Shown: one piece after another, positions 5,365-50,524 of the stretch | Layout: the number at the start of each line of letters is the position of its first letter | How positions within the stretch are numbered: position 1 is the stretch's first letter | Sequence record: MT446412.1 | DNA: 64,000 bases | Source: Escherichia virus TH41 | Strand: one strand, 5' to 3' | Translations under genes and position numbers: made by a program | Notes under the pieces: model-generated | What the model was told of the DNA's origin: nothing | The model's database searches: none | The model's input: the letters and a program-made list of their open reading frames with translations, nothing else

Positions 5365-5662
5365 GATTGAAATCTATGGTATCCCCGAAGAAGTCGGTCG
5401 ATGCCCCGGTTGTATGCACGTCAGGAGCCTTCTGGGCTCCTTAAACCTTCCTTATACATTCTATTCAGTCCTTAACAAACAAGGCTCTGAAATCGCTTAT
5501 GACAGGCCTTTAATCGTGTCTTTGGCTAAGCGTGCTGGATATCCTACCCTTAACATTCGTTACCCAGTGATTTTTGTCAATGATGAAAAAATGACCAATA
5601 TTCCTGCCTTTAAAACAAAACTGATATCCCTGGGGTATGACCAGGACTTAATTGAAGATTAA
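5345..5662 (+). CDS. nrdH: Glutaredoxin-like protein (NrdH-like)
   Basis: KIEIYG...CPGC redox motif near N-terminus; GTG start after AAGGAG; position after nrdG as in T4. Confidence 0.55.
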   Translation: MDQKLTKIEIYGIPEEVGRCPGCMHVRSLLGSLNLPYTFYSVLNKQGSEIAYDRPLIVSLAKRAGYPTLNIRYPVIFVNDEKMTNIPAFKTKLISLGYDQDLIED

Positions 5663-5685
5663 AAAGGGGTGTACAAGCCCCTTTG
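5662..5685 (+). promoter_or_regulatory. Stem-loop AAAGGGG/CCCCTTT enclosing the -35 element of the next promoter
   Basis: Inverted repeat read directly; no T-run follows. Confidence 0.45.
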
Positions 5686-5698
5686 AATGATGTATCAT
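5669..5698 (+). promoter_or_regulatory. Early sigma70-type promoter (GTGTAC-N18-TATCAT), PeSL-like cassette
   Basis: Family consensus shared with at least 15 other sites; followed by conserved leader CCATCAACTACTGATGAGGA and ATG 5730. Confidence 0.6.
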
Positions 5699-5729
5699 TA
5701 TCCCATCAACTACTGATGAGGAGAACATT

Positions 5730-5906
5730 ATGACTATCCAAGATAAAGAAATTAAAGTCAACCAGTATTATTCAATCAACGGCAAAGCTGTTCTAGTAAC
5801 TGAAATATCTAGCCTGGATGTGTGGTATACCATAATTGACCTTAATATTAAAATGATTTGTGACCGTGGTGTATTTTGCTCGATAGCTAAGGAAATTAAA
5901 TTATGA
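5730..5906 (+). CDS. Hypothetical protein (58 aa)
   Basis: ATG 8 nt after GAGGAG in conserved leader; ATGA overlap with next ORF. Confidence 0.5.
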   Translation: MTIQDKEIKVNQYYSINGKAVLVTEISSLDVWYTIIDLNIKMICDRGVFCSIAKEIKL

Positions 5907-6157
5907 GCCTGAAATTACATTCAATGAAAAATGTCGCCACCCTTAATCTGGATGATGAGCGCCTAATTTTTATCACCGTCACTGATAAGAATATTGAAAT
6001 TGCAAATGGTCCTAAGACTTATTGTTGTCCAGTGAAGAATTGGAAACATGTAACCTTTTTGACCCTGGGTGACCGTCTGAAAGACCTTAAGTTGGATTTG
6101 GATGTCAAAGATATCCAGTACATTAAAAATCTTATTGGATACAAACTGCTGAGGTAA
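5903..6157 (+). CDS. Hypothetical protein (84 aa)
   Basis: ORF track. Confidence 0.5.
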   Translation: MSLKLHSMKNVATLNLDDERLIFITVTDKNIEIANGPKTYCCPVKNWKHVTFLTLGDRLKDLKLDLDVKDIQYIKNLIGYKLLR

Positions 6158-6159
6158 CT

Positions 6160-6453
6160 ATGGGTAAAACTATTCGTCGCAAAGAATTGTCTGTAAAAGA
6201 TTTTTATTATTCAGGGCGTCGTCAGGCGCCTGATGGTGTAAGTCAAGAACAAGTTGAAGAAAATATCTTCCGTTCAGACAAATGGAAGCGTATGCGTGGC
6301 GTTGATTCAGAAGTCAAGAATGAGATGAATCGTCAACTGCGTAAAGAAGTTCGTCAGTTGAAAAAAGATGTATACGTTGAGGATGATTTGGATTATAATA
6401 CTTCTCATCGTGTTGCAAAACGTAAATCAAACGAGTGTTATCGTTACAGCTGA
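6160..6453 (+). CDS. Hypothetical basic protein (97 aa)
   Basis: ORF track; GAGG upstream of ATG. Confidence 0.5.
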   Translation: MGKTIRRKELSVKDFYYSGRRQAPDGVSQEQVEENIFRSDKWKRMRGVDSEVKNEMNRQLRKEVRQLKKDVYVEDDLDYNTSHRVAKRKSNECYRYS

Positions 6454-6460
6454 GGAAAAT

Positions 6461-6658
6461 ATGAATCCACAATCTAAATTATCACAGCGAATTGCTGAAT
6501 CTCGTCGTCAGTTCTTTGAAAATATGATAGCTCAAGGTATTGATGACGAAGTTTTTCTAAACTGGTTTTGGAATCTCTATTATTCAAAATGTGCAGGAGC
6601 AATATTAATTTCTGCCGCGATGATGTATGAAGGTTGGAAAGGCGCAAAAGCGCAGTAA
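6461..6658 (+). CDS. Hypothetical protein (65 aa)
   Basis: ATG preceded by GAGGAAAAT; track start 6368 overlaps previous ORF and is less likely. Confidence 0.4.
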   Translation: MNPQSKLSQRIAESRRQFFENMIAQGIDDEVFLNWFWNLYYSKCAGAILISAAMMYEGWKGAKAQ

Positions 6659-6666
6659 AAACCAGC

Positions 6667-6688
6667 GGGGTCATGGTATAATGACCCC
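6667..6688 (+). promoter_or_regulatory. Perfect 8-bp inverted repeat GGGGTCAT/ATGACCCC enclosing TATAAT
   Basis: Read directly; same architecture as hairpins at 36894 and 47923. Confidence 0.45.
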
Positions 6689-16407: not shown

Positions 16408-19122
16408 ATGCAAGAATTTTATTTAACTATCGAACAAATCGGTGACAACCTACTCGAACGATATATTGACAAGAATGGTCATGAACGTGTTCGTGAAATC
16501 CCTTATGCTCCATGCTTGTTTATGCACGCCCGCGAAGACCAAGCTGCAAAGTATACAGACATCTATAATAAAGGTTGTGTGAAAAAAGAATTCGATTCCA
16601 TGCGTGATGCATCCCAGTGGATGAAGCGAATGAATGACATGGGTCTCGAAGCTATGGGTATGGACGACTTTAAACTCGCATACTTGTCCGACCGTTACCC
16701 ACACGAAATCAAATATGATTCAAGTAAAATCCGTGTTGCTAACTTCGATATCGAGGTGACATCTCCTGATGGGTTCCCTGAACCGTCTGAAGCACGTCAC
16801 CCTATTGACGCCCTGACGCACTATGATTCGGTAGACGATAAATTCTATGTCTTTGACCTTTTGGGCTCACCATACGCCACTGTGGAGCAATGGTCTATTG
16901 ATATTGCTGCTAAGCTGCAGGAAGACGGTGGTGATGAAGTCCCGGAAGAAATCCTGGAAAAAATTGTTTATATGGCTTTCGATTCAGAAGAAGAAATGCT
17001 CCAGCAGTATTTGGTATTCTGGAACGAGAAAACTCCGGTTATGTTAACTGGTTGGAACATCGAGAAGTTTGATATTCCATATATCTACAACCGCCTTAAA
17101 AATGTATTTGGTGAAGCTACAGCAAAACGTCTGAGCCCACATCGTCGTACAAAAGTTAAGGTCATTAACAACGGCTTTGGCGAAGAACAAGAAATCATTC
17201 AGATTCTGGGTATCTCTGTTCTGGATTATCTGGACCTGTATAAAAAGTTCAGCTTCACAAACCAACCGTCTTATTCGTTGGATTATGTTGCGGAATCTGA
17301 ACTGGGTGTTGGTAAACTCCCGTATGATGGCCCGATTTCTAAACTGCGCGAATCAAATCACCAGCGGTATATTTCTTATAACATCATCGACGTTTATCGT
17401 GTTGTGCAGATTGACCGTAAGCGACAGTTTATTAACCTGAGTCAGTCAATGGGTTATTACGCAAAAATGCAGATTCAGTCTGTATTCAGCCCAATCAAAA
17501 CTTGGGATGCGATTATCTTTAACAGCTTGAAGACTCAAAACAAAGTTATTCCGGAAACCAAATCGCATGTTCGCCAATCGTTCCCTGGTGCATTTGTTAA
17601 GGAACCTATTCCGAACGCATACAAATATGTAATGAGCTGTGACTTAACATCTCTGTATCCGAGCATCATCCGACAGATTAACATCAGTCCAGAAACGATT
17701 GCCGGGTCATTTGCGCCAGCCCAGATGTATGAATACATCGCAGGAACTGCTGACCGTCCATCTGATACATTTAGTTGTGCTCCAAATGGTATGATGTATT
17801 TTAAAGATGTTGCGGGTATTATTCCGACAGAAGTCACCAAGGTGTTTAATCAGCGTAAAGAGCACAAAGGCTATATGCTTGCGGCTCAACGTAATGGTGA
17901 ACTGATTAAGGAAGCTCTGCGTAATCCAGGAACTGGCACAACCGAACCAGAAGTTGATTATCGTCATGACTTTGATGACAATATGAAAACGGCCCTGCAT
18001 GGTCTGAATCAAACAGTCCTAAATGGTATGCTGTACAAAGCGCAGATGGAAGAAGTTGCAGGCATGACCGCACAGATTAACCGTAAACTGCTTATCAACA
18101 GTTGTTATGGCGCTCTGGGTAATATCTGGTTCCGTTACTTTGACCTGCGAAATGCAACCGCGATTACATCTTTCGGACAACTTGCACTGCAGTGGATTGA
18201 GCGTAAAGTTAACGAATACTTCGATAGTGTTTGTGGTACAAGCGGTGAAACTTATGTGTTCTATGGCGATACTGACTCCATTTATATCCAGTGCGATAAC
18301 CTGATTAAAAAGGTTGGTGGCGAATCTAAATTCCGCGATACAAACCACCTGGTTGACTTCATGGACAAGTTTGCGAAAGACCGTCTGGAACCGGCAATCG
18401 ATAAAGCTTTCCGTGAGCTGGCTGAATACATGAACAACAAACAGCACCTTATGTTTATGGACCGTGAGGCGATTGCATGTCCTCCGCTGGGTTCGAAGGG
18501 TGTGGGTGGATTCTGGACGGCGAAGAAGCGTTATGCGTTGAACGTGTACGATATGGAAGGCACACGTTATGCTGTTCCAAAATTGAAAATCATGGGTCTG
18601 GAAACTCAAAAGTCGAGTACTCCAAAGGCATGTCAGAAAGCTCTGAAAGAATGCATCCGCCGTATGCTGCAAGAAGGTGAAGAATCTCTGCAGACATACT
18701 TCAAGGAATTCAATAAGGAATTTAATGAGCTTAACTACATGACCATCGCAGGGGTATCATCGGTTAACAACATCCAGAAATATAATGAAGGTGGTTTCCC
18801 TGGATTTAAGTGCCCGGCTCATATCAAAGGTGTGCTTGCATATATGCGTGCAACTAAAGGTCTGAAGACTGTTCCGCAAATCATGGAAGGGGAAAAGGTG
18901 TATGTACTTCCTCTTAAAGTCGGCAACCCATTTGGTGAAACCGTGATTGCATGGCCATCAGGGATTGAACTCCCGATTGAAATTCGTGACCAAGTCTTGC
19001 AGTGGATGGACTACAACACACTGTTCCAGAAGACTTTTGTCAAACCGTTAACAGGTTTCTCTGAAGCTGCAAAGGTTGATTACGAAAAGAAAGCAACTCT
19101 TTTTGATATGTTTGACTTTTAA
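16408..19122 (+). CDS. 43: DNA polymerase gp43 (family B)
   Basis: 904 aa; exo motif FDIE, polymerase motifs DLTSLYPSII, KLLINSCYGALG, YGDTDS. Confidence 0.97.
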   Translation: MQEFYLTIEQIGDNLLERYIDKNGHERVREIPYAPCLFMHAREDQAAKYTDIYNKGCVKKEFDSMRDASQWMKRMNDMGLEAMGMDDFKLAYLSDRYPHEIKYDSSKIRVANFDIEVTSPDGFPEPSEARHPIDALTHYDSVDDKFYVFDLLGSPYATVEQWSIDIAAKLQEDGGDEVPEEILEKIVYMAFDSEEEMLQQYLVFWNEKTPVMLTGWNIEKFDIPYIYNRLKNVFGEATAKRLSPHRRTKVKVINNGFGEEQEIIQILGISVLDYLDLYKKFSFTNQPSYSLDYVAESELGVGKLPYDGPISKLRESNHQRYISYNIIDVYRVVQIDRKRQFINLSQSMGYYAKMQIQSVFSPIKTWDAIIFNSLKTQNKVIPETKSHVRQSFPGAFVKEPIPNAYKYVMSCDLTSLYPSIIRQINISPETIAGSFAPAQMYEYIAGTADRPSDTFSCAPNGMMYFKDVAGIIPTEVTKVFNQRKEHKGYMLAAQRNGELIKEALRNPGTGTTEPEVDYRHDFDDNMKTALHGLNQTVLNGMLYKAQMEEVAGMTAQINRKLLINSCYGALGNIWFRYFDLRNATAITSFGQLALQWIERKVNEYFDSVCGTSGETYVFYGDTDSIYIQCDNLIKKVGGESKFRDTNHLVDFMDKFAKDRLEPAIDKAFRELAEYMNNKQHLMFMDREAIACPPLGSKGVGGFWTAKKRYALNVYDMEGTRYAVPKLKIMGLETQKSSTPKACQKALKECIRRMLQEGEESLQTYFKEFNKEFNELNYMTIAGVSSVNNIQKYNEGGFPGFKCPAHIKGVLAYMRATKGLKTVPQIMEGEKVYVLPLKVGNPFGETVIAWPSGIELPIEIRDQVLQWMDYNTLFQKTFVKPLTGFSEAAKVDYEKKATLFDMFDF

Positions 19123-19124
19123 GT

Positions 19125-19154
19125 GTTTACAACGGCAATGGATTGCCGTATGAT
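19125..19154 (+). promoter_or_regulatory. Early-type promoter (GTTTAC-N18-TATGAT) with small internal hairpin
   Basis: Directly after gp43 stop; followed by CCCCATCAACTGATGAATAACTTGAGGA leader and ATG 19192. Confidence 0.5.
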
Positions 19155-19191
19155 TACCCCATCAACTGATGAATAACTTGAGGATATTAAA

Positions 19192-19434
19192 ATGGAAACA
19201 TTAATTGCGGGTACTGTTGTTCTTGGTGCAGGTTCTTTCTTCCTGGCTGCACTGGCATATTTTCTGCCGTGGATTATCGCGCTACTGCGTGGAACCAAAA
19301 GTAATTGCGGAATCTTCTTTGTTAACCTCCTGTTAGGTTGGACAATGGTCGGATGGTTTATTGCATTTATCTGGGCACTCGTTGCTGAACGTAAATCAAA
19401 CGCACAAGTAATTATCATCAAGGAATCAAAATGA
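19192..19434 (+). CDS. imm: Superinfection immunity protein Imm-like (two-TM membrane protein)
   Basis: 80 aa; two hydrophobic segments, motif NLLLGWTMVGWFIAFIWAL; adjacent to gene 43 as in T4. Confidence 0.55.
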   Translation: METLIAGTVVLGAGSFFLAALAYFLPWIIALLRGTKSNCGIFFVNLLLGWTMVGWFIAFIWALVAERKSNAQVIIIKESK

Positions 19435-21790: not shown

Positions 21791-23214
21791 AAACTATTTT
21801 ATCCCAGCTACTCTTTAACAAGGAATATTTTGTTAAAGTCTGGCCATATCTGAATAACACATATTTTGAAAAGGGTCCAGCAAAGACCCTTTTTAATACG
21901 ATTAACGAACACGTAAAAGAATATCAAGCGGTACCAACTAAGACTGCACTTGATATCGCGCTCGACAGTTCTGACCTTTCTGAAGTCGAATATGAAGGCA
22001 CAAAGAAACTCTTAGGAGTCCTGGCCGATACTCCAGAAGACCAGGAATGGTTGGTTAAAGAAACCGAGAAGTATGTACAGAAGTCTGCGATGTTCAATGC
22101 CACATCCAGGATTATCGAAATCCAGAGCAATGCCGAACTTCCGAAAGATAAACGTGATAAACGAATCCCGGATATTGGTGCTATCCCTGACATCATGCGC
22201 GATGCATTGTCTATCTGTTTTGACTCTGCTCTGGGCCATGACTGGTTAAACGATTACGAAGCTCGATTCCAGACTTATCTGAACAAATCGAAGAAGGTTC
22301 CGTTCCGTATTAACATCCTGAATAAAATCACGAAGGGCGGGGTTGAGTACGGTACAGAGAACGTTTTACTGGCCGGGACGAACGTCGGCAAATCCCTTGG
22401 ACTTTGTTCGCTGGCGGCTGACTATCTTCAGACTGGTCATAATGTGCTTTATATAAGCATGGAAATGGCTGAAGAAGTATGTGCCAAACGTATTGATGCC
22501 AACTTGCTGGATGTGTCTCTGGATGATATTGATGAAGGTCATGTGTCATGGGCGGAATACAAAAGTAAGATGGAAAAATGGCGTGCAGCCGGGACCCTTG
22601 GGACTCTGAAGATAAAACAATATCCAACTGGCGGTGCTCATGCGGATACCTTCCGTGCATTGCTGAATGAATACAAACTGAAGCAAGGGTTTGTGCCGGA
22701 TGTGATTATTGTTGACTACCTGGCAATCTGTGCAAGCTCAAGACTGAAAACGTTTACCGAAAACAGTTACGGCCTGATTAAGATGGTTGCAGAAGAACTT
22801 CGTGGTCTGGCGGTCGAGAAAAATGTGGTCCTGTGGACTGCAGCGCAGACAACCAGGGGTGCGAACGTTGCAGCTGAGATTGATATGGCTGACATCGCTG
22901 AATCTTTTGGTATTGCTCACACGGCCGACTTTATGTTGGGTGTTGTTGAGACCGAAGAATTCGCTCAAATGGGACTACAGTTAATCAAACAGCTTAAGTC
23001 TCGTTACGGCGATAAGAACTACTATAATAAATTCAAGATGGGTGTTAAGAAAGGTAATCAGCGCTGGTACGAGGTTGATGATGATTCAGCTCCTAAACAA
23101 GGCCCTACGGTTAAAGAAGCCACTGGTGAGATGAATCGCCAGGCTGAAATGAATAGACAAACCAGGGTCAACAGGAGCGACCTGGACGACCTTGCTGCTC
23201 AAATGAAATTCTAA
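21784..23214 (+). CDS. 41: Replicative DNA helicase gp41 (DnaB-like)
   Basis: GTG start giving MVETILSQLLF (T4: MVEIILSHLIF); Walker A GTNVGKSLG; near-identical blocks to T4 gp41. Confidence 0.93.
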   Translation: MVETILSQLLFNKEYFVKVWPYLNNTYFEKGPAKTLFNTINEHVKEYQAVPTKTALDIALDSSDLSEVEYEGTKKLLGVLADTPEDQEWLVKETEKYVQKSAMFNATSRIIEIQSNAELPKDKRDKRIPDIGAIPDIMRDALSICFDSALGHDWLNDYEARFQTYLNKSKKVPFRINILNKITKGGVEYGTENVLLAGTNVGKSLGLCSLAADYLQTGHNVLYISMEMAEEVCAKRIDANLLDVSLDDIDEGHVSWAEYKSKMEKWRAAGTLGTLKIKQYPTGGAHADTFRALLNEYKLKQGFVPDVIIVDYLAICASSRLKTFTENSYGLIKMVAEELRGLAVEKNVVLWTAAQTTRGANVAAEIDMADIAESFGIAHTADFMLGVVETEEFAQMGLQLIKQLKSRYGDKNYYNKFKMGVKKGNQRWYEVDDDSAPKQGPTVKEATGEMNRQAEMNRQTRVNRSDLDDLAAQMKF

Positions 23215-23233
23215 AGACCTTCGGGTCTTTTTC
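23213..23233 (+). terminator. Rho-independent terminator (AAGACC-TTCG-GGTCTT + T-run)
   Basis: UUCG hairpin followed by TTTTTC directly after gp41 stop. Confidence 0.7.
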
Positions 23234-23241
23234 ATTTAGAG

Positions 23242-23274
23242 GTTTACAACACCATAAAAAGGGTGTACTATTAT
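23242..23274 (+). promoter_or_regulatory. Degenerate early promoter (GTTTAC ... TATTAT) with conserved leader
   Basis: Spacer about 21 nt (long); followed by TATCCCATCAACTACTGATGAGGATAATAAA-ATG 23303. Confidence 0.35.
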
Positions 23275-23302
23275 CCCATCAACTACTGATGAGGATAATA
23301 AA

Positions 23303-23551
23303 ATGTTATTAGTTAATGTGCAGTACCAGTTCAAATCTGAAGAAGCTCTCCAAAAGTATGCTGATATTTGTGAGCATAATAAAAGAACAGCTGCCATTGT
23401 TGGTCTGAAGCCTTTTAAAATTTTGGATTGCTCCTTGAACAGAGCAAGACGCTGGTGTAGTGTTGCCTGTCATGCTTCAGTTGAAGGGAATGATTATTTT
23501 TTCATTACTTTCAATGCACAAGATTTTCATTTAATTAATGAATTAAAATAG
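23303..23551 (+). CDS. Hypothetical protein (82 aa)
   Basis: ATG after conserved leader with GAGGA. Confidence 0.55.
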   Translation: MLLVNVQYQFKSEEALQKYADICEHNKRTAAIVGLKPFKILDCSLNRARRWCSVACHASVEGNDYFFITFNAQDFHLINELK

Positions 23552-23932: not shown

Positions 23933-23937
23933 GTGAA

Positions 23938-32476: not shown

Positions 32477-33223
32477 ATGACTTTATCAAAAACCAAAACG
32501 TTGAAAGTTAAACGTCGTCTGGAACACACTCAAGCTTCCGCTAAACGCCGCGGTAAAGACTTTAACCTGGATTTTGATTATCTGGTTAATATTCTTGACC
32601 AAAAAGTTTGTGCTTATTCTGGTGAGACATTTAATAACTCTATTGAAGGTGAGAAGTTATCATTAGAGCGTTTTAACAATGATATTGGTTATATCAAGGG
32701 TAATGTTATTCCTGTTAAAAAGAAATACAATACCATGCGTTCTGATTGGTCCTTGGATGAGCTTAAACAACGTCGCGATGATGTTGCTGTAAAAATTGCT
32801 CGCCCCTCTGCCAAGAAGATTGAAAAGTTAAATCTGACTTCAGAGAAATGGGAACAGATTAAAAAGTCATATACTCATATCAAGAACATCCAGCACAAAC
32901 GTGATAATCGCGTTAAGCATTATGCTCAAATGAGTAAATCAGAGCAGTCCAAAGAAAACCAATTAAAAATGGTTGCTCTGAAGGCTCGCATTGATGGTTC
33001 CCGTGTTGCGGAAGGACATGAGCTTACTAAATTGAATGTCCTGCTCAAAGGTAATGACTGGAAAGTTACCAAGAAATTAACTGATGCTGAAACGCTTTTT
33101 GATTGCTATGATAAAATCATTCAAGGTCTTGAGCGTTTTGAGAAGATTGGTTTTATTGGTAAATTAAAACTGAAACGTGGTCTGCCTTTGAACGCGTCAA
33201 TTTTTAAACTGATTAGAGGTTAA
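32477..33223 (+). CDS. Hypothetical basic protein (248 aa); position corresponds to T4 srd
   Basis: ORF track; synteny only. Confidence 0.55.
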   Translation: MTLSKTKTLKVKRRLEHTQASAKRRGKDFNLDFDYLVNILDQKVCAYSGETFNNSIEGEKLSLERFNNDIGYIKGNVIPVKKKYNTMRSDWSLDELKQRRDDVAVKIARPSAKKIEKLNLTSEKWEQIKKSYTHIKNIQHKRDNRVKHYAQMSKSEQSKENQLKMVALKARIDGSRVAEGHELTKLNVLLKGNDWKVTKKLTDAETLFDCYDKIIQGLERFEKIGFIGKLKLKRGLPLNASIFKLIRG

Positions 33224-35116: not shown

Positions 35117-35797
35117 ATTGATGCTATTATTGACTTTGAAACTCTGGGAAACGGCTCGAAGGGAGCCGTTATTGACCTGGCTCTGATTACATTCGAATCT
35201 GACCCTGCTATTGTGGAATCATTCGAAACCCTGGTTAATCGCGGCAAACGTATCAAGTTTAGCCTTGAATACCAAAAAGGTAAGCGTCTGTTCGATACAA
35301 CAACCATGAGTTGGTGGAAAAAGCAATCAGCAGAAGCCCGTGTTAACTTGGCTCCTTCTGCGCAAGATGTTGATACTCTGACCGGTATCCAACAGGCAAT
35401 TGATTATCTGAATGGTAATGGAATTAACAAATACGAAAGCCTTATGTGGTGTCGTGGAATGTCTTTTGACTTCCCGTTGTTTGTTGACCTTATCCGTGAC
35501 CTACAGCGCAATGAGGGTATTCCCGAGCGTGAATTGAATACATATGGCCTGGAGCCGGTTGTATTCTGGAACCAGCGAGATATCAGGACAGCAATCGAAG
35601 CCCTATCACTCGTCCGTAAGATGTGTGAAACTCCATTACCAAAGGGGGCTTTAGATGGATTTGTGGCGCATGATTCGGTGCATGACTGCGCGAAAGATAT
35701 TTTGATGCTTAAGTATGCCCAGCGCTATGCTCTTGGTTTGGATGAAGTTCCTTCCGAAGAAGATGCAGACCCGTTATCTTTACCGAAAAAACGATAA
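35114..35797 (+). CDS. dexA: Exonuclease A (DexA, DEDD 3'-5' exonuclease)
   Basis: 227 aa (same as T4 DexA); N-terminal IDFETLG motif. Confidence 0.85.
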   Translation: MIDAIIDFETLGNGSKGAVIDLALITFESDPAIVESFETLVNRGKRIKFSLEYQKGKRLFDTTTMSWWKKQSAEARVNLAPSAQDVDTLTGIQQAIDYLNGNGINKYESLMWCRGMSFDFPLFVDLIRDLQRNEGIPERELNTYGLEPVVFWNQRDIRTAIEALSLVRKMCETPLPKGALDGFVAHDSVHDCAKDILMLKYAQRYALGLDEVPSEEDADPLSLPKKR

Positions 35798-35803
35798 AAA
35801 GTA

Positions 35804-35833
35804 GTGTACAAGGCCAATGGAAAGAGACATAAT
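35804..35833 (+). promoter_or_regulatory. Early promoter GTGTAC-N18-CATAAT
   Basis: Preceded by AAAAAGTA; leader CATCTCATCAACTACTGATGAGGATAACAAA; ATG 35865. Confidence 0.6.
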
Positions 35834-35864
35834 CATCTCATCAACTACTGATGAGGATAACAAA

Positions 35865-36122
35865 ATGATTACTTCTTTTGAAATTGGCCAACAATATGAA
35901 ATGTCTGCTTTTCAAGCTGCTGAAGCAGGTCTGACTGAAGCGTTTGAATGTGCATTTACAAATATTCGTGGTAAAATCTTTACTGTCAATAAAATTGCGG
36001 TATATGATAAAGAAACAGACATGAACAAAGGCATCTACTTGAACGTGTCAAACGCAAAAGGCCGTCGTGAAATTATGGTTGTACAACCTAACCAACTGGC
36101 GATGTTCAATAAGGTTACATAA
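35865..36122 (+). CDS. Hypothetical protein (85 aa)
   Basis: ATG after conserved leader; in frame with track ORF 35817..36122. Confidence 0.5.
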   Translation: MITSFEIGQQYEMSAFQAAEAGLTEAFECAFTNIRGKIFTVNKIAVYDKETDMNKGIYLNVSNAKGRREIMVVQPNQLAMFNKVT

Positions 36123-36877
36123 TGAAACCAGAATTTATTGACTTTGATGTTGTAAGCATGTATGTTCGCCCAATTAAACCATTAAAACTTGAGAAACAAA
36201 ATATGACTATTGAAATTAACAAAACTTATCAACTGATTGAACCTATTATTCAAAACGCAGCTATGGTTTCTGGGTATAATACTCTGACTGATGCTTTAGG
36301 CGAAGGTGAATTTATTGTTGAAACTTTTGTAAAAAGTAACTGGTTTGATAAAGCATATATTTTGCATGCACGTCGCCTTGATACAAATGAAGTAGAAAAA
36401 ATTATGGTTTATGAAGCTGAGATTGAACTCTTCAAAGAAGTTGAAGAAACTCCCATCAAAGTTGGTAAAACCTATCAGCTTATTGAAGATGCCAGTCAGT
36501 TTGGAAAGACTGTTGCAATGCATGCCGGGTGGCGGGTACTGAAAGGTATTTTTGGATTTGCTCCATTTACCGTTAAAACAGTTAAGTACCACAATCACCA
36601 AAGCATCTTTGAATTTACTGCGGTCAATGAATCAGGTGACAATCTTGAAGCTATCCTTTATCCGCGTGAATCTGTACTGCTGGAAGAAGTTAGCGAGCTT
36701 GGCGACCCTATTGACTTGCTATGTAAACCAGTTCAAATCAAACGCCCATTTAACAGTTCCATTTGTGGTTGGGTAACAGACCAGTGGATTGAAGATGGTG
36801 TTGAACTCCTGAACGTTGTTCATTGTGGTAGTTTTACTGTTGTACCACGTTCCATGGTTGTTGAAATTTTTAATTAA
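36122..36877 (+). CDS. Hypothetical protein (251 aa), C-terminal domain paralogous to next ORF
   Basis: C-terminus GWVTDQWIEDGVELLNVVHCGSFTVVPRSMVVE vs GYITDQWVEEGVKLYNIVFLGTFKVVPESFIVE. Confidence 0.55.
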   Translation: MKPEFIDFDVVSMYVRPIKPLKLEKQNMTIEINKTYQLIEPIIQNAAMVSGYNTLTDALGEGEFIVETFVKSNWFDKAYILHARRLDTNEVEKIMVYEAEIELFKEVEETPIKVGKTYQLIEDASQFGKTVAMHAGWRVLKGIFGFAPFTVKTVKYHNHQSIFEFTAVNESGDNLEAILYPRESVLLEEVSELGDPIDLLCKPVQIKRPFNSSICGWVTDQWIEDGVELLNVVHCGSFTVVPRSMVVEIFN

Positions 36878-36881
36878 ATTT

Positions 36882-36911
36882 GTGTACAAACTCGTGGGGC
36901 CAGAGTATAAT
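36882..36911 (+). promoter_or_regulatory. Early promoter GTGTAC-N18-TATAAT with -10 inside inverted repeat GTGGGGCC/GGTCCCAC
   Basis: Read directly; ATG 36954. Confidence 0.6.
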
Positions 36912-36953
36912 GGTCCCACTGGAGAATAAACTTATTAATCAAGAGAGAAAATT

Positions 36954-37445
36954 ATGAAAGTTGAAGCTGGTGATATTGTACGCGTTTCTAAAGAATCTCG
37001 TTCTAAAGCTGCTGGTCGTTTTGTTGAGGTTGTGGGTCTTCGCACTAATTTAGTAGGTGGAATTAAAGAAGTTAAAGTGCGTATTATTCCTAAAAATGGC
37101 CAGACTGAAACTCAATTGGCTTATGTACATCCTAAATTCCTGGAATCAACTGAATTTACTGGATATATCGCTCCTGTGGTTGAAGAAGTTGAAACCATTG
37201 ACCAGTCTCATGTTGGGGTTGATTTTAAATGGAAATTAGGTAAAGGTGTCTTTTTCGTTTCACCTAAACCGTTTGAATACAATTGCAAGTATGGTCCGAC
37301 TTATGAAACCACTAGCATGTCTGGTTATATCACAGACCAGTGGGTTGAAGAAGGGGTTAAACTGTATAATATTGTGTTCCTTGGAACCTTTAAGGTTGTT
37401 CCTGAAAGTTTTATCGTTGAGTATGCTGATATTCATTTTGCCTAA
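36954..37445 (+). CDS. Hypothetical protein (163 aa); size and position resemble T4 motB
   Basis: ORF track; paralogous C-terminus with 36122..36877. Confidence 0.55.
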   Translation: MKVEAGDIVRVSKESRSKAAGRFVEVVGLRTNLVGGIKEVKVRIIPKNGQTETQLAYVHPKFLESTEFTGYIAPVVEEVETIDQSHVGVDFKWKLGKGVFFVSPKPFEYNCKYGPTYETTSMSGYITDQWVEEGVKLYNIVFLGTFKVVPESFIVEYADIHFA

Positions 37446-41033: not shown

Positions 41034-41057
41034 AAAAGGACCTTCGGGTCCTTTTTT
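41034..41057 (+). terminator. Rho-independent terminator (GGACC-TTCG-GGTCC + T6)
   Basis: UUCG hairpin plus TTTTTT. Confidence 0.75.
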
Positions 41058-41060
41058 ATT

Positions 41061-41090
41061 ATGTACAAGCCATAAAAATTGCGTTAAGAT
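41061..41090 (+). promoter_or_regulatory. Early promoter ATGTAC-N18-TAAGAT
   Basis: Same architecture as GTGTAC family; ATG 41108 after GAGGTGAAAAT. Confidence 0.45.
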
Positions 41091-41107
41091 GTCCTTGAGG
41101 TGAAAAT

Positions 41108-41392
41108 ATGATTATGTCTGACGGAAGTTTAGTTAATCTACAGAATGTTGCTCGTTGTATTATGGAAGCAGGCCTGAGGAAGGTGCAGGAGCTCCCAGAT
41201 AGCGACAGGAAGCGAAGTTACTTGTTGGCTGTAAGAGCATCAGCCATGAGCATTAAGGCTGGCCAGAAGGTTCCTGAGGAGCGAATTGAAGCACTCCTTG
41301 CATTGATATACCATGGCCAAGAACATAAAGCTACCATGCGTAGTATGAGAAAAATATTACAGGAGATTGGAAATGACGAACTTCAAAGTTAA
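41108..41392 (+). CDS. Hypothetical protein (94 aa)
   Basis: ORF track. Confidence 0.5.
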   Translation: MIMSDGSLVNLQNVARCIMEAGLRKVQELPDSDRKRSYLLAVRASAMSIKAGQKVPEERIEALLALIYHGQEHKATMRSMRKILQEIGNDELQS

Positions 41393-45353: not shown

Positions 45354-45947
45354 ATGATTCAGAAGAGTAAAACATGGGAGCATCTGAAAAAGATGCCCTC
45401 CTTTCTTTATACAAAGGAAGACTTAACCCCCGAATCCCTGCAAAAGATTGTAGATACAGCCAGGTATTCATTGCGTAAAGACCCGGGTCAGGACCGTGAG
45501 CAAGTCATGCAAAGATGTATGGTGGCTACAATGGCTGAACAAGCTATTGCTAAATGGACTTCAGGTTTTTTATGTGGCGGTGATGAAGATTACGATAATC
45601 CTTATTCCTTTGCATTTGATGTAGTTTCGAAGGAAGGGGTAAGAATCGAAGTCAAGACTCATCAGTCTGGTTCCAAATGGATATCCGTACATACTGGTCA
45701 CCAGGGTGATTATCCACATGGTTACGGGGTTAATCTTGGCCCTTTTATGCAGCACAAGCTTGCTGACCTTATGATTATGTTTAATGTAAAAGAGACTCTC
45801 AAAGGTTATAGATTTAAACCAAAATTCCTTGCTGGGCCTGGTGCTTTCGTTCCTGAGTCTGGTCTTGTGCAGAAATCACAAGGGGATGGCTGGTACCTCC
45901 GTTCTTGTTCAGAAGAAAAATTTCCCTATCACCGGTTTACAAGCTGA
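45354..45947 (+). CDS. Hypothetical protein (197 aa); size and position compatible with T4 denB
   Basis: ATG preceded by GGATGAG; no sequence-level recognition. Confidence 0.5.
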   Translation: MIQKSKTWEHLKKMPSFLYTKEDLTPESLQKIVDTARYSLRKDPGQDREQVMQRCMVATMAEQAIAKWTSGFLCGGDEDYDNPYSFAFDVVSKEGVRIEVKTHQSGSKWISVHTGHQGDYPHGYGVNLGPFMQHKLADLMIMFNVKETLKGYRFKPKFLAGPGAFVPESGLVQKSQGDGWYLRSCSEEKFPYHRFTS

Positions 45948-45964
45948 ACCAACTGTGTAATAAT
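45935..45964 (+). promoter_or_regulatory. Early promoter GTTTAC-N17-TAATAAT
   Basis: Inside 3' end of previous ORF; followed by RBS-containing hairpin. Confidence 0.4.
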
Positions 45965-45991
45965 GTCCTCATACCAACAAATGAGGACATT
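45962..45991 (+). promoter_or_regulatory. Perfect 11-bp stem-loop (AATGTCCTCAT/ATGAGGACATT) with the SD GAGGA in its 3' arm
   Basis: Read directly; ATG 45995 is 3 nt after the stem. Confidence 0.6.
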
Positions 45992-45994
45992 ATC

Positions 45995-46270
45995 ATGGAA
46001 CACGTTACTACTCACAACATCAAACAAATTCTTATCCAAGCACTCAAAAACAACAACATCAATTTTCCAACCCATGAAATTTTTGATGTAGCATTCAACG
46101 AAGTCCAGGGTCAAGTTGCATATTATGACGTTATCGTTTATCTTTCAGAATTTGAAGTCTACCACCTGACTGAAATTGCTTTCTATCTCTATCGTGGGAC
46201 TGCAGATTTTACTGGGGTCGTGAATGCAGTTGGCGCATATAAAGAAGTTAAAGAACAAATGCACAATTAA
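45995..46270 (+). CDS. Hypothetical protein (91 aa)
   Basis: ATG in frame within track ORF 45905..46270. Confidence 0.5.
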   Translation: MEHVTTHNIKQILIQALKNNNINFPTHEIFDVAFNEVQGQVAYYDVIVYLSEFEVYHLTEIAFYLYRGTADFTGVVNAVGAYKEVKEQMHN

Positions 46271-46280
46271 TTAAAAAGTA

Positions 46281-46310
46281 GTGTACATCAGTATGGAGTC
46301 TATGTATAAT
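46281..46310 (+). promoter_or_regulatory. Early promoter GTGTAC-N18-TATAAT
   Basis: Preceded by AAAAAGTA; followed by GATTCCATACTGAGTTACC; ATG 46345. Confidence 0.6.
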
Positions 46311-46344
46311 GATTCCATACTGAGTTACCAAACTGGAGAATAAA

Positions 46345-46500
46345 ATGAAACCTGCTCAATATGCAATGACTTTATACCTTGAAGTTAATGGCGATATTAC
46401 TGAATTTTTTAAATTAATGCAACAGCGCGGAAAAAGTTTTGCAGTTACTGAGCGTCAATTTTACGCTTGCCGTAAAAATACATACAATCGTTATGCGTGA
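46345..46500 (+). CDS. Hypothetical protein (51 aa)
   Basis: ATG after promoter and GGAGAATAAA; under track cutoff. Confidence 0.4.
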   Translation: MKPAQYAMTLYLEVNGDITEFFKLMQQRGKSFAVTERQFYACRKNTYNRYA

Positions 46501-46777: not shown

Positions 46778-46867
46778 GCAGCAAAACCTGGTGTCTTATC
46801 TGGATGTTGTGTATCCCAGTAATTTGCGTTTGTTTTAGTTTATTATTAATGAAACTTGCATAAAAGA

Positions 46868-46896
46868 GTGTACATCTCCGGTGGTTGTAGTATAAT
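46868..46896 (+). promoter_or_regulatory. Early promoter GTGTAC-N17-TATAAT
   Basis: Leader CTATCAACTACTGGAGATGATT; ATG 46923. Confidence 0.55.
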
Positions 46897-46922
46897 GAAC
46901 CTATCAACTACTGGAGATGATT

Positions 46923-47256: not shown

Positions 47257-47498
47257 AACTTTTTAAAGACATTGCAGTTGGTGAAAAATTTGTCCTGGGT
47301 AATGGTCAACAACTGATTCGCATTTCGCCTTTAATGGATAACAGTGAGCGCCCTGTGCGTACTGAAAACTGTTTGGATTATCCTTTTTATCAGAAACGTT
47401 TTGCAATTGAAAATAATACTGAGTGCTTCACAGTTGATGAACTGATGGAATCATCAGAAGAAGTTGACTTGTGGGATGGCGCGGTAGATGTAGAATAG
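47253..47498 (+). CDS. Hypothetical protein (81 aa)
   Basis: ORF track; ATGA overlap. Confidence 0.5.
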   Translation: MKLFKDIAVGEKFVLGNGQQLIRISPLMDNSERPVRTENCLDYPFYQKRFAIENNTECFTVDELMESSEEVDLWDGAVDVE

Positions 47499-47527
47499 TG
47501 TACAAACTCATGGGAGCAGAGTATAAT
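47498..47527 (+). promoter_or_regulatory. Early promoter GTGTAC-N18-TATAAT with -10 flanked by imperfect inverted repeat
   Basis: Near-identical to cassettes at 36882 and 47910; ATG 47566. Confidence 0.6.
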
Positions 47528-47565
47528 GTTCCCGTGGATAATAAAATTTAATTGAGGAAAATATT

Positions 47566-47910
47566 ATGTCTAAAGTATTTTTTGGTAATCGCAACATTAT
47601 GTTCTTTAAACAGATTAGCATATCAGAAGCATTTGATTTAAGTTATTCAGGTGGTACAAAAGCTGTTAACCTTAAAAATTTGATGTCTGCAGAATTTGCA
47701 TTCTATCAGGACCCTGAAACTGGTTTCTATAAATTTATTAAGTTCCGCATGACTATGGACCGCGATTATCGCGATGTTTATTATACAAGTTATGAAAGTG
47801 TTGTGAATGCAATTCGTGAAGCTTATGGGTTGGATTCGTTGTCTCTTGACCGTCTGTATAATGCAAGCCTTTACACCAGTGGATTTATTTTAGAACAACT
47901 ACAAAAATAG
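47566..47910 (+). CDS. Hypothetical protein (114 aa)
   Basis: ATG preceded by GAGGAAAATATT. Confidence 0.55.
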   Translation: MSKVFFGNRNIMFFKQISISEAFDLSYSGGTKAVNLKNLMSAEFAFYQDPETGFYKFIKFRMTMDRDYRDVYYTSYESVVNAIREAYGLDSLSLDRLYNASLYTSGFILEQLQK

Positions 47911-47939
47911 TGTACAAACTCTTGGGGTCAGAGTATAAT
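47910..47939 (+). promoter_or_regulatory. Early promoter GTGTAC-N18-TATAAT with -10 inside perfect 8-bp inverted repeat TGGGGTCA/TGACCCCA
   Basis: Read directly; ATG 47984. Confidence 0.6.
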
Positions 47940-47983
47940 GACCCCACTGGAGCACAAAACTTTAACTTACTGAGGAAATTAAT

Positions 47984-48433
47984 ATGACTACTTACATGAC
48001 CCGTCGTGACGTACTGAATGCTGGTGCTACCACTGTTGCTTATATCCATAATGGTAATTATGTTGCCGGTCGCCCAACTAAAGAAGCTATCGCTCAACCA
48101 GGTTTTTATTTCGTGGTTAAAGGTGAAGGCGAATCACGTATTGTTGCTGCACGTTTTTATGTTGGTAACCAACGTTCACAACAAGGGTTTGACACTGTAT
48201 TAAGTCACATCCGCAAACAACGTTCACAATTGTCTCGCACAATGGCGAACAATGGTGTTATCTATGAAGTCCTGTTTGTTCCAGTTTCTAAAATGAAACC
48301 CCTGACAACTGGTTATGGTAAAGGTCAAATTGCGATGGCGTTCACTCGCTCACATAGTTCTGATTGCCAGACCCTTTCAGAAATGAATCGCATGCTTGCT
48401 GATAACTTTAAATTCATTCTGCAGAGCTATTAA
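47984..48433 (+). CDS. ndd: Nucleoid disruption protein Ndd
   Basis: 149 aa; blocks [52 protein letters not shown] match remembered T4 Ndd. Confidence 0.82.
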
Positions 48434-48434
48434 T

Positions 48435-48608
48435 ATGAGACATTTCTTTACAATGGGTTACCTATTTGTTTTAGCCCTATTTGTTATTACAGGAGCCTTT
48501 ATAGCCTTTGGTGCTCCATTTAATGATAAAGTTGCTGTTACTATGTGCTTTAGTGGTGGGTATATCTGTTTTGAACGCTTATGCAAAATGTGTGGTATAT
48601 ATGAGTAA
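48435..48608 (+). CDS. Hypothetical small membrane protein (57 aa)
   Basis: ATG 2 nt after ndd stop; hydrophobic. Confidence 0.35.
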
Positions 48609-48688
48609 TTTCCATAACGAACATGTGATGCAATGGCATCGTCATAATCTGAAATTAACCGGCGTCTTCGGACGTCCTTGAGGAAAAT

Positions 48689-48844
48689 ATGAATAAATTT
48701 GTTCATGGTGTAGCTTTTTTCTGCTGGTCATTTTTATTTGTTGGAACATTAATAACTGGTGAAACTTCAGTATTTCTGCAGTCAACAGCTCAAGGTGTAT
48801 TAGCAGTTTTATCACTATTTAAATTATTGGATAAAAATGATTAA
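48689..48844 (+). CDS. Small membrane protein (51 aa), Ac-like by size and position
   Basis: ATG preceded by GAGGAAAAT; hydrophobic; upstream of gene 52 where T4 has ac. Confidence 0.35.
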   Translation: MNKFVHGVAFFCWSFLFVGTLITGETSVFLQSTAQGVLAVLSLFKLLDKND

Positions 48845-48977
48845 GAAAATCCTGGGCTACTCGTTAGCCCTTGCTGCCTTATTGGTGGCGCTGTATTATG
48901 GAGTTGTATTTGCATTAGTGCAGGTTGTGCTTTTTATTTCTGATGCTATAATGGCAGTACATTCGTTAATCTGGTAA
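48837..48977 (+). CDS. Hypothetical small membrane peptide (46 aa)
   Basis: Overlapping start; hydrophobic; directly upstream of gene 52. Confidence 0.3.
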   Translation: MIKKILGYSLALAALLVALYYGVVFALVQVVLFISDAIMAVHSLIW

Positions 48978-48985
48978 GGTGATAT

Positions 48986-50365
48986 ATGTCTGACGTTTTA
49001 AGTATGATGTCCAAACAGTTCAGTGATTCTATGGGGACCCTTAACCCACGCAGTCTAAAAGACATTATTGACGTGGAAGCATTGTCATATGCTATCTACA
49101 CTGTGGAAGGTCGTGCCATTCCAAACATGATTGATGGTTTTAAACCAGTTCACAGATTTGTTATGGCGAGAGCATTAGACCTGGCTCGTGGTGATAAGAA
49201 TAAATTCCATAAGGTTGCATCCATTGCAGGTGGCGTAGCTGATTATGGTTATCACCATGGCGAAGCATCAGCGGAAGAAGCAACTTCTGGTTTGGTCGCA
49301 ACATATAAAAATGAATATCCTATGTTTGATGGGCAAGGTAACTTTGGTTCCAGAATGGTTCCAGAAGCATCATCAGCTCGTTATGTATTCGCAAGGGTTT
49401 CAAAGAACTTTTACAACTTGTTTAAGGATACAGAATATGCTCCGGTCCATCCTGATGAAGAACATAAGCCTCCTGCTTTTTATCTTCCTGTTATTCCTAC
49501 TGTATTACTTAACGCCACTTCTGGGATTGCTGTTGGCTTCGCTACTGATATCCTTCCTCATTCGTTCCAGGACGTCAAGGAAGCTGTTAAAGCTATCGTG
49601 GAAGGTCGTGAGCCGGTTGCTCCGAAAGTAAAATATCCAGAATTCCGTGGTAAAGTTGTTGAGCTGGAAGAGCCTGGTAAGTATGAACTTCACGGCACAT
49701 ACAAAATGACCTCAAGGACTCAAATGGAAATTACTGAAATCCCGGTCCAATGGAACCTGGAAAAATATACAAGTAAAATCCTGGACCCACTGGAAGAGAA
49801 AGGTTTTATCACCTGGAAAGATAACTGCGGCGAGCATGGTTTTGGGTTTAAGATTAAATTCCGCAAAGAATACAAGTTGGATGGCACTGAAGAAGAGAAT
49901 CATGAGAAAATCATGAAAGACTTTGGTCTGATTGAGAAACTCTCCCAGAACTTAACTGTGCTTAATCACAAAGGCAAATTAGCTGAATACACCAACACGC
50001 TTGACCTGATTCGCGATTTCGTTGATGTCCGTAAGACCTATGTTCAAGTGCGAATTGACAGTAAGATTAAAGAAACTGAAGCGGCATTTAAACTGGCCCG
50101 GGCAAAAGTCTTCTTTATTAAAGAAGTGATTGATGGTAAGGTTGTTATCCAGGGGAAACCTCGTAAGAAGTTGATTGAGGAACTCCAGGCGAGTGAAATA
50201 TATGGCGATTATGCAGAGAAGTTAGTGGCGATGAACATCTACCATATGACCTCTGATGAAGCCAAGAAGCTTGCAGACGAAGCAAAGGCTAAGAAAGCTG
50301 AGCATGAGTACTGGAAGACAACTGATGTTAAAACTGAATACCTTAATGATTTGGAGGCTCTATGA
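48986..50365 (+). CDS. 52: DNA topoisomerase II medium subunit gp52 (GyrA-like)
   Basis: 459 aa; RAIPNMIDGFKPVHRFVM breakage-reunion motif. Confidence 0.92.
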   Translation: MSDVLSMMSKQFSDSMGTLNPRSLKDIIDVEALSYAIYTVEGRAIPNMIDGFKPVHRFVMARALDLARGDKNKFHKVASIAGGVADYGYHHGEASAEEATSGLVATYKNEYPMFDGQGNFGSRMVPEASSARYVFARVSKNFYNLFKDTEYAPVHPDEEHKPPAFYLPVIPTVLLNATSGIAVGFATDILPHSFQDVKEAVKAIVEGREPVAPKVKYPEFRGKVVELEEPGKYELHGTYKMTSRTQMEITEIPVQWNLEKYTSKILDPLEEKGFITWKDNCGEHGFGFKIKFRKEYKLDGTEEENHEKIMKDFGLIEKLSQNLTVLNHKGKLAEYTNTLDLIRDFVDVRKTYVQVRIDSKIKETEAAFKLARAKVFFIKEVIDGKVVIQGKPRKKLIEELQASEIYGDYAEKLVAMNIYHMTSDEAKKLADEAKAKKAEHEYWKTTDVKTEYLNDLEAL

Positions 50366-50457
50366 GTTTTGGAGTTGAGTTTGCATTGCTTTGTATTTTT
50401 GCGGCAATCGCAGGTGTGATTGTTGGTATGTTTATTGGCAATAAGATAGATAAAGAC

Positions 50458-50480
50458 TAGGACCCTTCGGGGTCCTTTTT
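50458..50480 (+). terminator. Rho-independent terminator (GGACCC-TTCG-GGGTCC + T5)
   Basis: 6-bp stem, UUCG loop, T-run. Confidence 0.75.
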
Positions 50481-50494
50481 ATTTTAAAAAAGTA

Positions 50495-50524
50495 GTGTAC
50501 AAGTCCCTTGACCTGATGCATAAT
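50495..50524 (+). promoter_or_regulatory. Early promoter GTGTAC-N18-CATAAT
   Basis: Preceded by AAAAAAGTA; followed by GATTCCATACTGAGTTACAC; ATG 50574. Confidence 0.6.

Follow-up and report, generated by a model that had tools for sequence, protein, structure and literature searches.

Does the promoter-like motif that recurs between the genes of Escherichia virus TH41 mark a family of early promoters, or does it mark modules that shuffle the genes around them? The stretch analyzed here, the window, comprises 64,000 nucleotides of this phage (MT446412.1). By megablast it belongs to Gaprivervirus, a T4-like genus (the SP18/VR7/VR20 group), with 99.9% identity to Escherichia phage UPEC01 (MW233709.1) over bases 1-25000; 30 database records each span 80% or more of these bases. 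A sequence-only reading had listed sixteen near-identical copies of the motif and likened them to the promoter-early-stem-loop (PeSL) cassettes proposed to shuffle gene modules in T4-type phages. We consider it very probable that the family represents the early (sigma-70 holoenzyme) promoters of Gaprivervirus, built as compact expression cassettes of ~70-100 bp, and that recombination between copies, of the PeSL type, is probably occasional, a by-product and not the reason why the cassettes exist.

In a search against shuffled sequence, the extended motif stood far above chance: GTGTACA-N17-TANNNT occurs eight times in the window, always on the plus strand, against 0.15 expected. The heptamer GTGTACA alone was observed 17 times against 6.7 expected, with 15 occurrences on the plus strand; of the two on the minus strand, one is the palindromic overlap at 32401/32402 and the other lies at 31731. 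A position-weight matrix built on the aligned copies, from -45 to +20 around the -10 hexamer, gave 18 matches above 12 bits on the plus strand of the window and none on the minus strand, and a matrix trained on UPEC01 gave 17 plus-strand matches above 3 bits against a single minus-strand match, which is the palindrome reversed. The whole UPEC01 genome, which has ~37-40 such cassettes, yielded 40 matches scoring over 10 bits. None lies off the early strand, and shuffled genomes gave only 0-2; one of the UPEC01 matches precedes a small plus-strand open reading frame (ORF) lying amid late genes. The family is conserved in 36-37 related genomes by blastn. A generic sigma-70 scan (TTGACA/TATAAT) remained at shuffle level (64 matches against 54.9 expected; 47 against 38.6), showing that the significance sits in the extended family motif and not in general promoter-likeness. 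Generic sigma-70 and terminator consensus scans were accordingly discarded as a means of finding the family, which they could not separate.

Every one of the sixteen starts listed in the sequence-only reading carries the module. The inverted repeats described at 36894-36919, 47923-47946 and 6667-6688 are all present and enclose the -10 hexamer, and the copies do cluster between gp41 and gp61, dexA and gp39, and rIIB and gp52. "Near-identical" was an overstatement, given a median in-register identity of 44%, although copies have stretches of as many as 29 identical nt in common, where the background never exceeds 12. The spacer of 17-18 nt counted after GTGTAC becomes the canonical 17 bp once the hexamer is taken as TGTACA, in register with TTGACA, except at 32401 and 46868, where it is 16 bp, and the small ORF said to follow each copy does follow many, but modA (204 amino acids, aa) and srd (248 aa) are served as well. 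Two listed sites, 41061 and 45935, proved marginal (0.5 and 1.4 bits in leave-one-out scoring, where the other copies reach 11-46). The reading had overlooked two good copies (23242 and 53195) as well as a weak one that precedes modB (31065).

Aligned on the -10 hexamer, the cassettes read aaaA(gta)-GTGTACAA-(16 nt)-g-TATAAT-gaTyCC-A-T..., and their ~70-100 bp run from an A-tract through the -35 hexamer, a 17-bp spacer, the -10 hexamer and a leader to the Shine-Dalgarno sequence and ATG. The A-rich, UP-like tract (aaaA) stands directly upstream of the -35 hexamer and takes the form AAAAAGTA in several copies. Among the 18 window copies, the -35 hexamer is GTGTAC in 12 and GTTTAC in three, with GCTTAC and ATGTAC also present, and two copies have a spacing shorter by 1 nt. 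The -10 hexamer is TATAAT-like, with A at -11 and T at -7 in 18/18 aligned copies and with CATAAT, TATCAT, TACTAT and TAAGAT as variants. From -10 to ATG the distance is 31-57 nt overall, with a conserved leader and Shine-Dalgarno sequence, as in PeSLs. The -35 core TGTACA is itself palindromic (a BsrGI site) and reads the same on both strands, for example at 32401-32408; the copy at 47916 pairs with a weak -10-like hexamer on the reverse strand.

The leaders fall into two uniform classes and a smaller remainder. In UPEC01, class A comprises 18 copies of the form yCyATCAACTACTGA(TGA)GGAG..ATG, with 31-44 nt from -10 to ATG and a transcript predicted to start AUCAACUACUGA(UGA)GGAG. Class B comprises 12 copies of the form yCCATACTGAGTTAmAmAA...CTGGAGAATAAAATG, with 40-57 nt from -10 to ATG and a predicted transcript AUACUGAGUUACACAAU...CUGGAGAAUAAA. 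The five other UPEC01 leaders are mostly of class C, the motB type (GTGTACAAACTCnTGGGrnCAgagtataaTGnyCCC). A blastn search found complete class A and class B cassettes in Gaprivervirus records only (36-37 records, each with 1-11 places, usually at least three). The sole class B match clearly outside the genus lies in Morganella phage vB_MmoM_MP1 (KX078569.1, 61846-61909; 82% over 65 nt), where it is annotated "promoter"; a weaker one (81% over 56 nt) lies in Escherichia phage fDHCT2. Such similarity suggests that the class B leader type reaches faintly into another Tevenvirinae lineage. The class A leader ACUGAUGAGGA also resembles a hammerhead CUGAUGA core, a likeness that we take to be coincidental, given its Shine-Dalgarno context and the lack of an Rfam match; an Rfam scan of the whole window gave no covariance-model match at the gathering threshold.

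The sites are intergenic and strand-specific, and the genes that follow them include orthologues of T4 early genes, namely imm, sp, modA, srd, motB, ndd, asiA and the motA operon (through the ORF before motA); window cassettes also precede a dozen small ORFs. The Gaprivervirus GenBank records examined list only coding sequences and no promoter features, and for the early promoters of JS98, VR7 and the Gaprivervirus group the literature that we found consisted of PeSL papers and general T4 reviews. It has been previously reported that the early-promoter logos of T4-like phages show GTTTAC at -36 to -31, an A-rich stretch at -40 to -44 and C at -3 to -1 (Nolan 2006), and the UP/-35/-10 combination has been described as an "uber" promoter (Hinton 2010). 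The Gaprivervirus cassettes share the A-rich UP-like tract, a GTTTAC-family -35 hexamer at -36 to -31, 17-bp spacing, a TATAAT -10 hexamer and a C-rich stretch at -3 to -1 with T4-type early promoters, as well as their number of ~40 per genome, their restriction to the early strand and their position upstream of the same early genes. They differ in the choice of -35 hexamer, which is GTGTAC (G at -34) in Gaprivervirus and GTTTAC in T4 and JS98, while RB49, RB43 and Aeh1 have G at -33; unlike those of T4, they mostly have no TGn, and their leaders after the start are much more uniform.

In the 40 kb of T4 that we examined, the early-strand promoter-like sites have the form GTTTAC-N18-TATAAT/TATAGT. 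The one upstream of motB, GTTTACAAACTCTTGGGACCAGAGTATAATGGTCCC, is the positional and sequence orthologue of window site 36882, including the hairpin with the -10 hexamer in its loop. An inverted repeat surrounds the -10 hexamer upstream of T4 dmd as well, and T4 srd and window site 32401 have homologous leaders. The composite architecture had been said to be absent from T4 itself; the motB site contradicts this, as does the explicit description of PeSLs for the PST/T4 pair in Comeau 2014, and the idea that T4 lacks promoter-hairpin composites is thereby corrected. JS98 (Dhakavirus) has a similar, class A-like start and leader (CCTATCAAC..GAGGAG) and similar positions before imm, sp, modA, modB, srd and motB, but it uses GTTTAC and mostly TACTAT, and the class B leader was not seen in the 30 kb examined. 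Judged from these comparisons, Gaprivervirus prefers G at -34, shares the ATCAAC start with a sister genus and shares the motB hairpin with T4.

Hairpins are a regular part of the cassettes. In 84-nt segments around the 18 window cassettes, the mean z-score of the minimum free energy (MFE), computed against simple shuffles, was -1.87 compared with -0.27 for random plus-strand segments, and z fell below -2 in 10/18 cassettes compared with 7/60 random segments. The hairpins occupy four places: just upstream of the -35 hexamer, as a GC stem followed by a T run (23213-23230, 41034-41055 and 50459-50476); around the -35 hexamer (5669 and 23946); in the spacer (19125); and around the -10 hexamer (24865, 36882, 46281, 47498 and 47910). 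Terminator-like hairpins with T runs adjoin cassettes 23242, 23946, 41061 and 50495. When the region from the spacer to the first transcribed bases was tested against shuffled spacers, 15/37 UPEC01 cassettes had an uninterrupted stem of 7 bp or more around the -10 hexamer, against 2.05 expected and a maximum of six in 500 shuffles. In class C, all seven pairs of the helix are kept across 15 distinct copies from seven genomes, and two pairs change on both sides (GC/AU/GU; UA/CG/GU/UG/GC). The covariation score of 0.374, compared with 0.156 in shuffles, was reached by 0/500 of them and collapsed when the partners were slid. Because these 15 copies had been chosen for pairing, class C was re-selected on the -35 hexamer and spacer only, without regard to pairing, and 16/16 copies kept at least 6/7 pairs.

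A further feature is found at the translation start. Strong RegB/S1 sites in T4 early mRNAs have the form GG*AGRAYARAA and lie in translation-initiation regions (Uzan & Miller 2010). Exact GGAGRAYARAA occurs three times in the window against 0.39 expected, each time at the Shine-Dalgarno/ATG of a cassette (23946, 46281 and 50495); these sites read GGAGAAUAAAAUG and lie at 23991, 46335 and 50564, and the GGAGAAUAAAA sites are the RegB-consensus matches of the cassettes. UPEC01, which encodes RegB, has 12 matches, 11 of them on the early strand and nine within 70 nt after a cassette -10 hexamer. The exact T4 consensus recurs at the Shine-Dalgarno/ATG of three window and nine UPEC01 cassettes; no more than a subset of the cassettes has it, and cleavage here is predicted. 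The pattern suggests that part of the family may couple immediate expression with programmed inactivation.

The early-promoter reading is carried by the motif statistics, strand bias and positions of the copies, by the enrichment and covariation of their hairpins, by their orthology with T4 promoter-like sites and by the match to the RegB consensus. In the mechanism that we propose, host RNA polymerase would read the A-tract (~-38 to -45, UP-like), the -35 hexamer (GTGTAC/TGTACA) 17 bp upstream of -10, and the -10 hexamer itself (TATAAT/CATAAT), and transcription would start ~7 nt past the -10 hexamer, at the A of the conserved CC-A-T. The transcript would open with a class A, B or C leader that leads straight into the Shine-Dalgarno sequence and ATG. 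In RNA reading through from upstream, the hairpins would most likely attenuate, terminate or stabilize the upstream transcripts and so insulate the cassette. A leader bearing a RegB/S1 site would allow its gene to be switched on at once with an mRNA marked for rapid inactivation.

Several points weigh against this reading. We infer that the cassettes are transcribed early, where transcription starts and that host polymerase suffices, and likewise the terminator or attenuator activity and RegB cleavage. TGTACA agrees with TTGACA at only 4/6 positions, and the extended -10 element (TGn), which in T4 early promoters is frequent and not obligatory, does not characterize the family: among the cassettes it was flagged only at 23946, 45935 and the weak copy at 31065, with G at -13 common instead. 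Promoter strength is therefore not guaranteed from the consensus alone. Most of the hairpins that span the -10 hexamer have no T run and hence are not classical intrinsic terminators. GGAG stands at the Shine-Dalgarno sequence in only 20/35 cassettes, so that, with about half of them lacking it, the link to RegB is limited to a subset. Finally, the copies used for covariation are partly paralogues and orthologues from few independent lineages.

The strongest competing explanation takes the cassettes to be primarily recombination modules, in which homologous exchange between copies would excise, insert and swap the flanked ORFs, through mini-circles, and would account for most of the plasticity seen in the variable regions. 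The parts of Arbiol 2010 and Comeau 2014 drawn on here describe PeSLs as an AT-rich upstream stretch, -35 and -10 boxes, a stem-loop that lies between these boxes, over them or a little upstream, a Shine-Dalgarno sequence and ATG; they document the mechanism for RB49/phi1 (Arbiol 2010) and propose it for T4/PST and KVP40/nt-1 (Comeau 2014). Stem-loop termination or attenuation and mini-circles from copy recombination are experimental PeSL features (Arbiol 2010, in the same parts), and those parts contain no lineage-specific leader classes and no RegB consensus at the Shine-Dalgarno sequence. The Gaprivervirus cassettes resemble the PeSLs of RB49/phi1, PST/T4 and nt-1/KVP40 in their composite order with a G-run/C-run stem-loop, in conservation over ~70-100 bp, in clustering in variable stretches and in the presence or absence of some cassette-plus-ORF units between close relatives. 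The proposed PeSL match holds for composite anatomy and for stem-loop enrichment (10/18 and 15/37 cassettes, as above), while a role in shuffling was not demonstrated.

To survey indels, we aligned the window to UPEC01, MN01, DK-13, P479, vB_YenM_P8 (YenP8) and EAWsc9 and recorded events of at least 30 bp. After gp41, the window, UPEC01 and P479 carry three tandem cassette-plus-ORF units; the first (23213..23305) is missing entirely in MN01, and the first two (the second being 23541..23632) are missing in DK-13, YenP8 and EAWsc9. The right junctions of these events lie 0-8 nt upstream of the -35 hexamer, as expected of cassette exchange, and the MN01 copy has a different upstream half. Further events end at 24865, where relatives have a replacement or deletion ending 7-9 nt upstream of the -35 hexamer; at 46281, where the following 51-aa ORF is deleted from its ATG on in DK-13 and P479; and at 47498, in a region replaced in P479 and EAWsc9. 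A 91-bp duplication of the 41061 cassette in UPEC01 and the shared blocks of up to 29 nt are also in keeping with exchange. However, the left junction at gp41 is its stop codon, out of register with any cassette, and many indels lie away from cassettes, including homing-endonuclease insertions (12747 and 27633), ORF indels and the events at 26017-26214, 28659-28946, 38520-38927 and 48432-48599. Breakpoints were not enriched at cassettes in these six genomes with crude gene calls (7/18 cassettes against 31/94 other gene junctions; Fisher P = 0.41). This small test, which is not decisive, gives no support for cassettes as preferred breakpoints, although a role in recombination is plausible for individual events. 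It cautions that in Gaprivervirus the cassettes do not attract indels measurably more often than ordinary junctions between genes do. Moreover, conservation of the ATCAAC leader and the motB hairpin across genera points to functional constraint rather than recent spread. We regard it as unlikely, with roughly the weight of a serious minority view, that shuffling is what the cassettes are primarily for.

Somewhat less probable still, and offered here tentatively, is an extension in which the two conserved leader classes and the covarying -10 hairpins would function as RNA, dividing the early regulon into sub-regulons controlled after transcription, and in which G at -34 would reflect co-adaptation with phage-modified polymerase (Alt-type ADP-ribosylation) and not drift. 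Class B and some class A leaders with the exact RegB/S1 site would then be shut off fast, and the remainder would either be protected or, in read-through RNA, undergo processing or termination at the hairpin.

The hairpins might instead act as DNA, through cruciform or single-strand extrusion at the -10 or -35 hexamer that would tune promoter opening or mark sites for recombination or replication proteins. The inverted repeats are indeed centred on the hexamers recognized in promoters, and RNA made from a cassette's own start contains the 3' arm only; both arms occur only in read-through RNA, so that the hairpins would form only in transcripts from upstream. Yet class C variants pass through G·T/G·U (GU 1+3+2, UG 2), which is stable in RNA and not in a DNA cruciform, and this tolerance favours a role at the RNA level. 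Stems of 7-13 bp with loops of 8-13 nt also extrude poorly in DNA, and several of the hairpins have the canonical RNA terminator form of a GC stem and T run. We therefore find a DNA-level function improbable.

Much fainter is the prospect that the cassettes are middle promoters dependent on MotA and AsiA, or another class dependent on phage factors. The phage encodes MotA and AsiA, and the non-canonical -35 hexamer, with G at -34, could hint at a modified polymerase. The element at 6653-6688, moreover, has a good -10 hexamer and no family -35 hexamer; for the latter reason we did not count it as a full member, and it may be of a different promoter class or a degraded cassette. At middle promoters, a MotA box, (a/t)(a/t)(a/t)TGCTTtA, centred at -30 and 11-13 nt from the -10 hexamer, replaces the -35 hexamer (Hinton 2010; Nolan 2006). 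No such box was found in our alignments, which show a -35-type hexamer at 17-bp spacing instead, and GCTTAC at 23945, considered as a candidate, was ruled out because it occupies -36 to -31 and not -30 with 11-13 nt spacing. Hinton 2010 counts AsiA and MotA among the early proteins of T4. In the window, asiA and the motA operon are themselves served by cassettes (53195 and 50495), so firing must precede these factors and the cassettes cannot depend on them. Chance or the composition of an AT-rich genome is next to impossible as an explanation: generic sigma-70-like matches do sit at shuffle level, but the shuffle controls already refute it for the extended motif (8 against 0.15), and the strand split (18:0 in the window, 40:0 in the genome) and conservation in 36-37 genomes agree.

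Read as early promoters, then, the motif family belongs to an already known kind of element and adds a few details specific to its lineage. It provides a usable early-promoter model for Gapriverviruses, which are common among therapeutic and environmental coliphage isolates, and allows ~40 transcription units to be placed per genome. What is new is small: G at -34, a compensatory, G·U-tolerant -10 helix that points to an RNA-level role, and built-in exact RegB sites, to which the two uniform leader classes make a further modest, lineage-specific addition. Our understanding of T4-type early transcription is unchanged by these results.

The plus-strand genes that surround the cassettes extend to ~53.5 kb in the order nrdD/G, gp55, gp47/46, gp45/44/62, regA, gp43, imm, uvsX, gp41, dmd, sp, gp61, modB/A, srd, dda, dexA, motB, gp39, rIIA/B, denB, ndd, gp52, motA and asiA; beyond this point lie late tail-fibre genes on the minus strand.

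Table 1. Cassettes and related elements of the window, with the genes or ORFs that they would serve.
Element	Coordinates	Strand	-35 and -10 hexamers	Hairpin and its sequence	Leader	Gene or ORF served	Scores and remarks
Cassette	5659..5732	+	GTGTAC (5669); TATCAT	-35 in loop of AAAGGGG/CCCCTTT	Class A (CCATCAACTACTGATGAGGAG..ATG)	58-aa ORF at 5730	Leave-one-out 45.9 bits; MFE z=-2.6
Relative	6653..6688	+	Perfect TATAAT	-10-in-loop hairpin only, GGGGTCAtggtataaTGACCCC			Kept in 7/7 Gaprivervirus genomes examined
Cassette	19115..19194	+	GTTTAC	Spacer hairpin CGGCAATggATTGCCG	Class A-like	imm (ATG 19192)	
Cassette	23213..23305	+	GTTTAC at 23242; TACTAT	Terminator-like (AAAGACCttcgGGTCTTT + T run), before -35	Class A	82-aa ORF at 23303	
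Cassette	23541..23632	+	-10 CATAAT		Class B (GATTCCATACTGAGTTACACAAT...)	100-aa ORF at 23630	
Cassette	23936..24003	+	GCTTAC/CTTACA; TGn -10	-35 in loop of terminator-like hairpin AAAGGGGC..GCCCCTTTTT	Class A, ending GGAGAATAAAATG (exact strong RegB consensus)	ORF at 24001, upstream of dmd	z=-3.5
Cassette	24855..24925	+		AGGGGTAAT/ATTATCCCT around -10	Class A	Spackle (sp, ATG 24923)	
Weak candidate	31055..31124	+	GTTTAC N18 CATAAT			Upstream of modB	10.2 bits
Cassette	31656..31729	+	-10 TAAGAT		Class A	modA (ATG 31727)	
Cassette	32391..32479	+	AAAAAGTA-GTGTAC; spacing 1 nt shorter		Class B start; homologous to T4 and JS98 srd leaders (..CGTCCGTAAGATGAGAAAAATAT)	srd	
Cassette	35794..35867	+	AAAAAGTA-GTGTAC; CATAAT		Class A	ORF after dexA (ATG 35865)	Identical in many Gaprivervirus records
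Class C cassette	36872..36956	+		GTGTACAAACTC + GTGGGGCCAgagtataaTGGTCCCAC; -10 in hairpin loop	Class C	motB	
Marginal member	41034..41110	+	ATGTAC N18 TAAGAT	Terminator-like (AAAAGGACCttcgGGTCCTTTT + T run), before -35			Leave-one-out 0.5 bits
Marginal member	45925..45997	+	GTTTAC N18 AATAAT				Inside 3' end of denB; leave-one-out 1.4 bits
Cassette	46271..46347	+		13-bp stem (TCAGTATGGAGTC/GATTCCATACTGA), -10 in loop	Class B, ending GGAGAATAAAATG (RegB consensus)	51-aa ORF next	z=-5.9
Cassette	46858..46919	+	Spacing 1 nt shorter	10-bp stem pairing spacer with leader	Class A	40-aa membrane ORF	
Class C cassette	47488..47568	+		GGGAGCAgagtataaTGTTCCC, one G·U pair	Class C		
Class C cassette	47900..47986	+		GGGGTCAgagtataaTGACCCC, perfect stem	Class C	ndd	
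Cassette	50459..50576	+		Terminator-like (AGGACCCttcgGGGTCCT + T run), before -35	Class B, ending GGAGAATAAAATG	ORF upstream of motA	blastn matches in Gaprivervirus records only
Cassette	53185..53276	+	GTGTAC N18 TATAAT			asiA (ATG 53274)	z=-3.1

Both marginal members come with observations of their own. The UPEC01 duplication (~59090-59270, locus L002) is a tandem repeat of 91 bp made up of the 41061 cassette and the first ~30 nt of the downstream ORF, and the window has a single copy of the doubled unit at 41034-41142. The duplication may be genuine, and then cassette-associated, or may stem from the assembly. At the second site, a perfect 13-bp hairpin, ATAATGTCCTCAT/ATGAGGACATTAT, extends over 45959-45997 from the -10-like hexamer to the Shine-Dalgarno sequence, adjoining ATG 45995, and the 76-nt region of 45925..45997 has an MFE of about -25 kcal/mol. 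As predicted from the fold, this hairpin would mask the ribosome-binding site in front of the 91-aa ORF that follows denB.

The window appears mosaic relative to database genomes: UPEC01 is 99.9% identical across the first 25 kb, but for the 95-nt cassette at 50495 its identity is only 91.6%, and there phage DCP80 matches at 100%. The nrdD/nrdG block (~2.4 kb, 2453-4853) is missing at this place in phage MN01, which has 124 bp instead. Relatives carry two insertions that the window does not have, both annotated as homing endonucleases: one of ~770 bp at 12747-12793 with a minus-strand ORF after gp46, and one of ~745 bp at 27633-27649 with an ORF after gp61.

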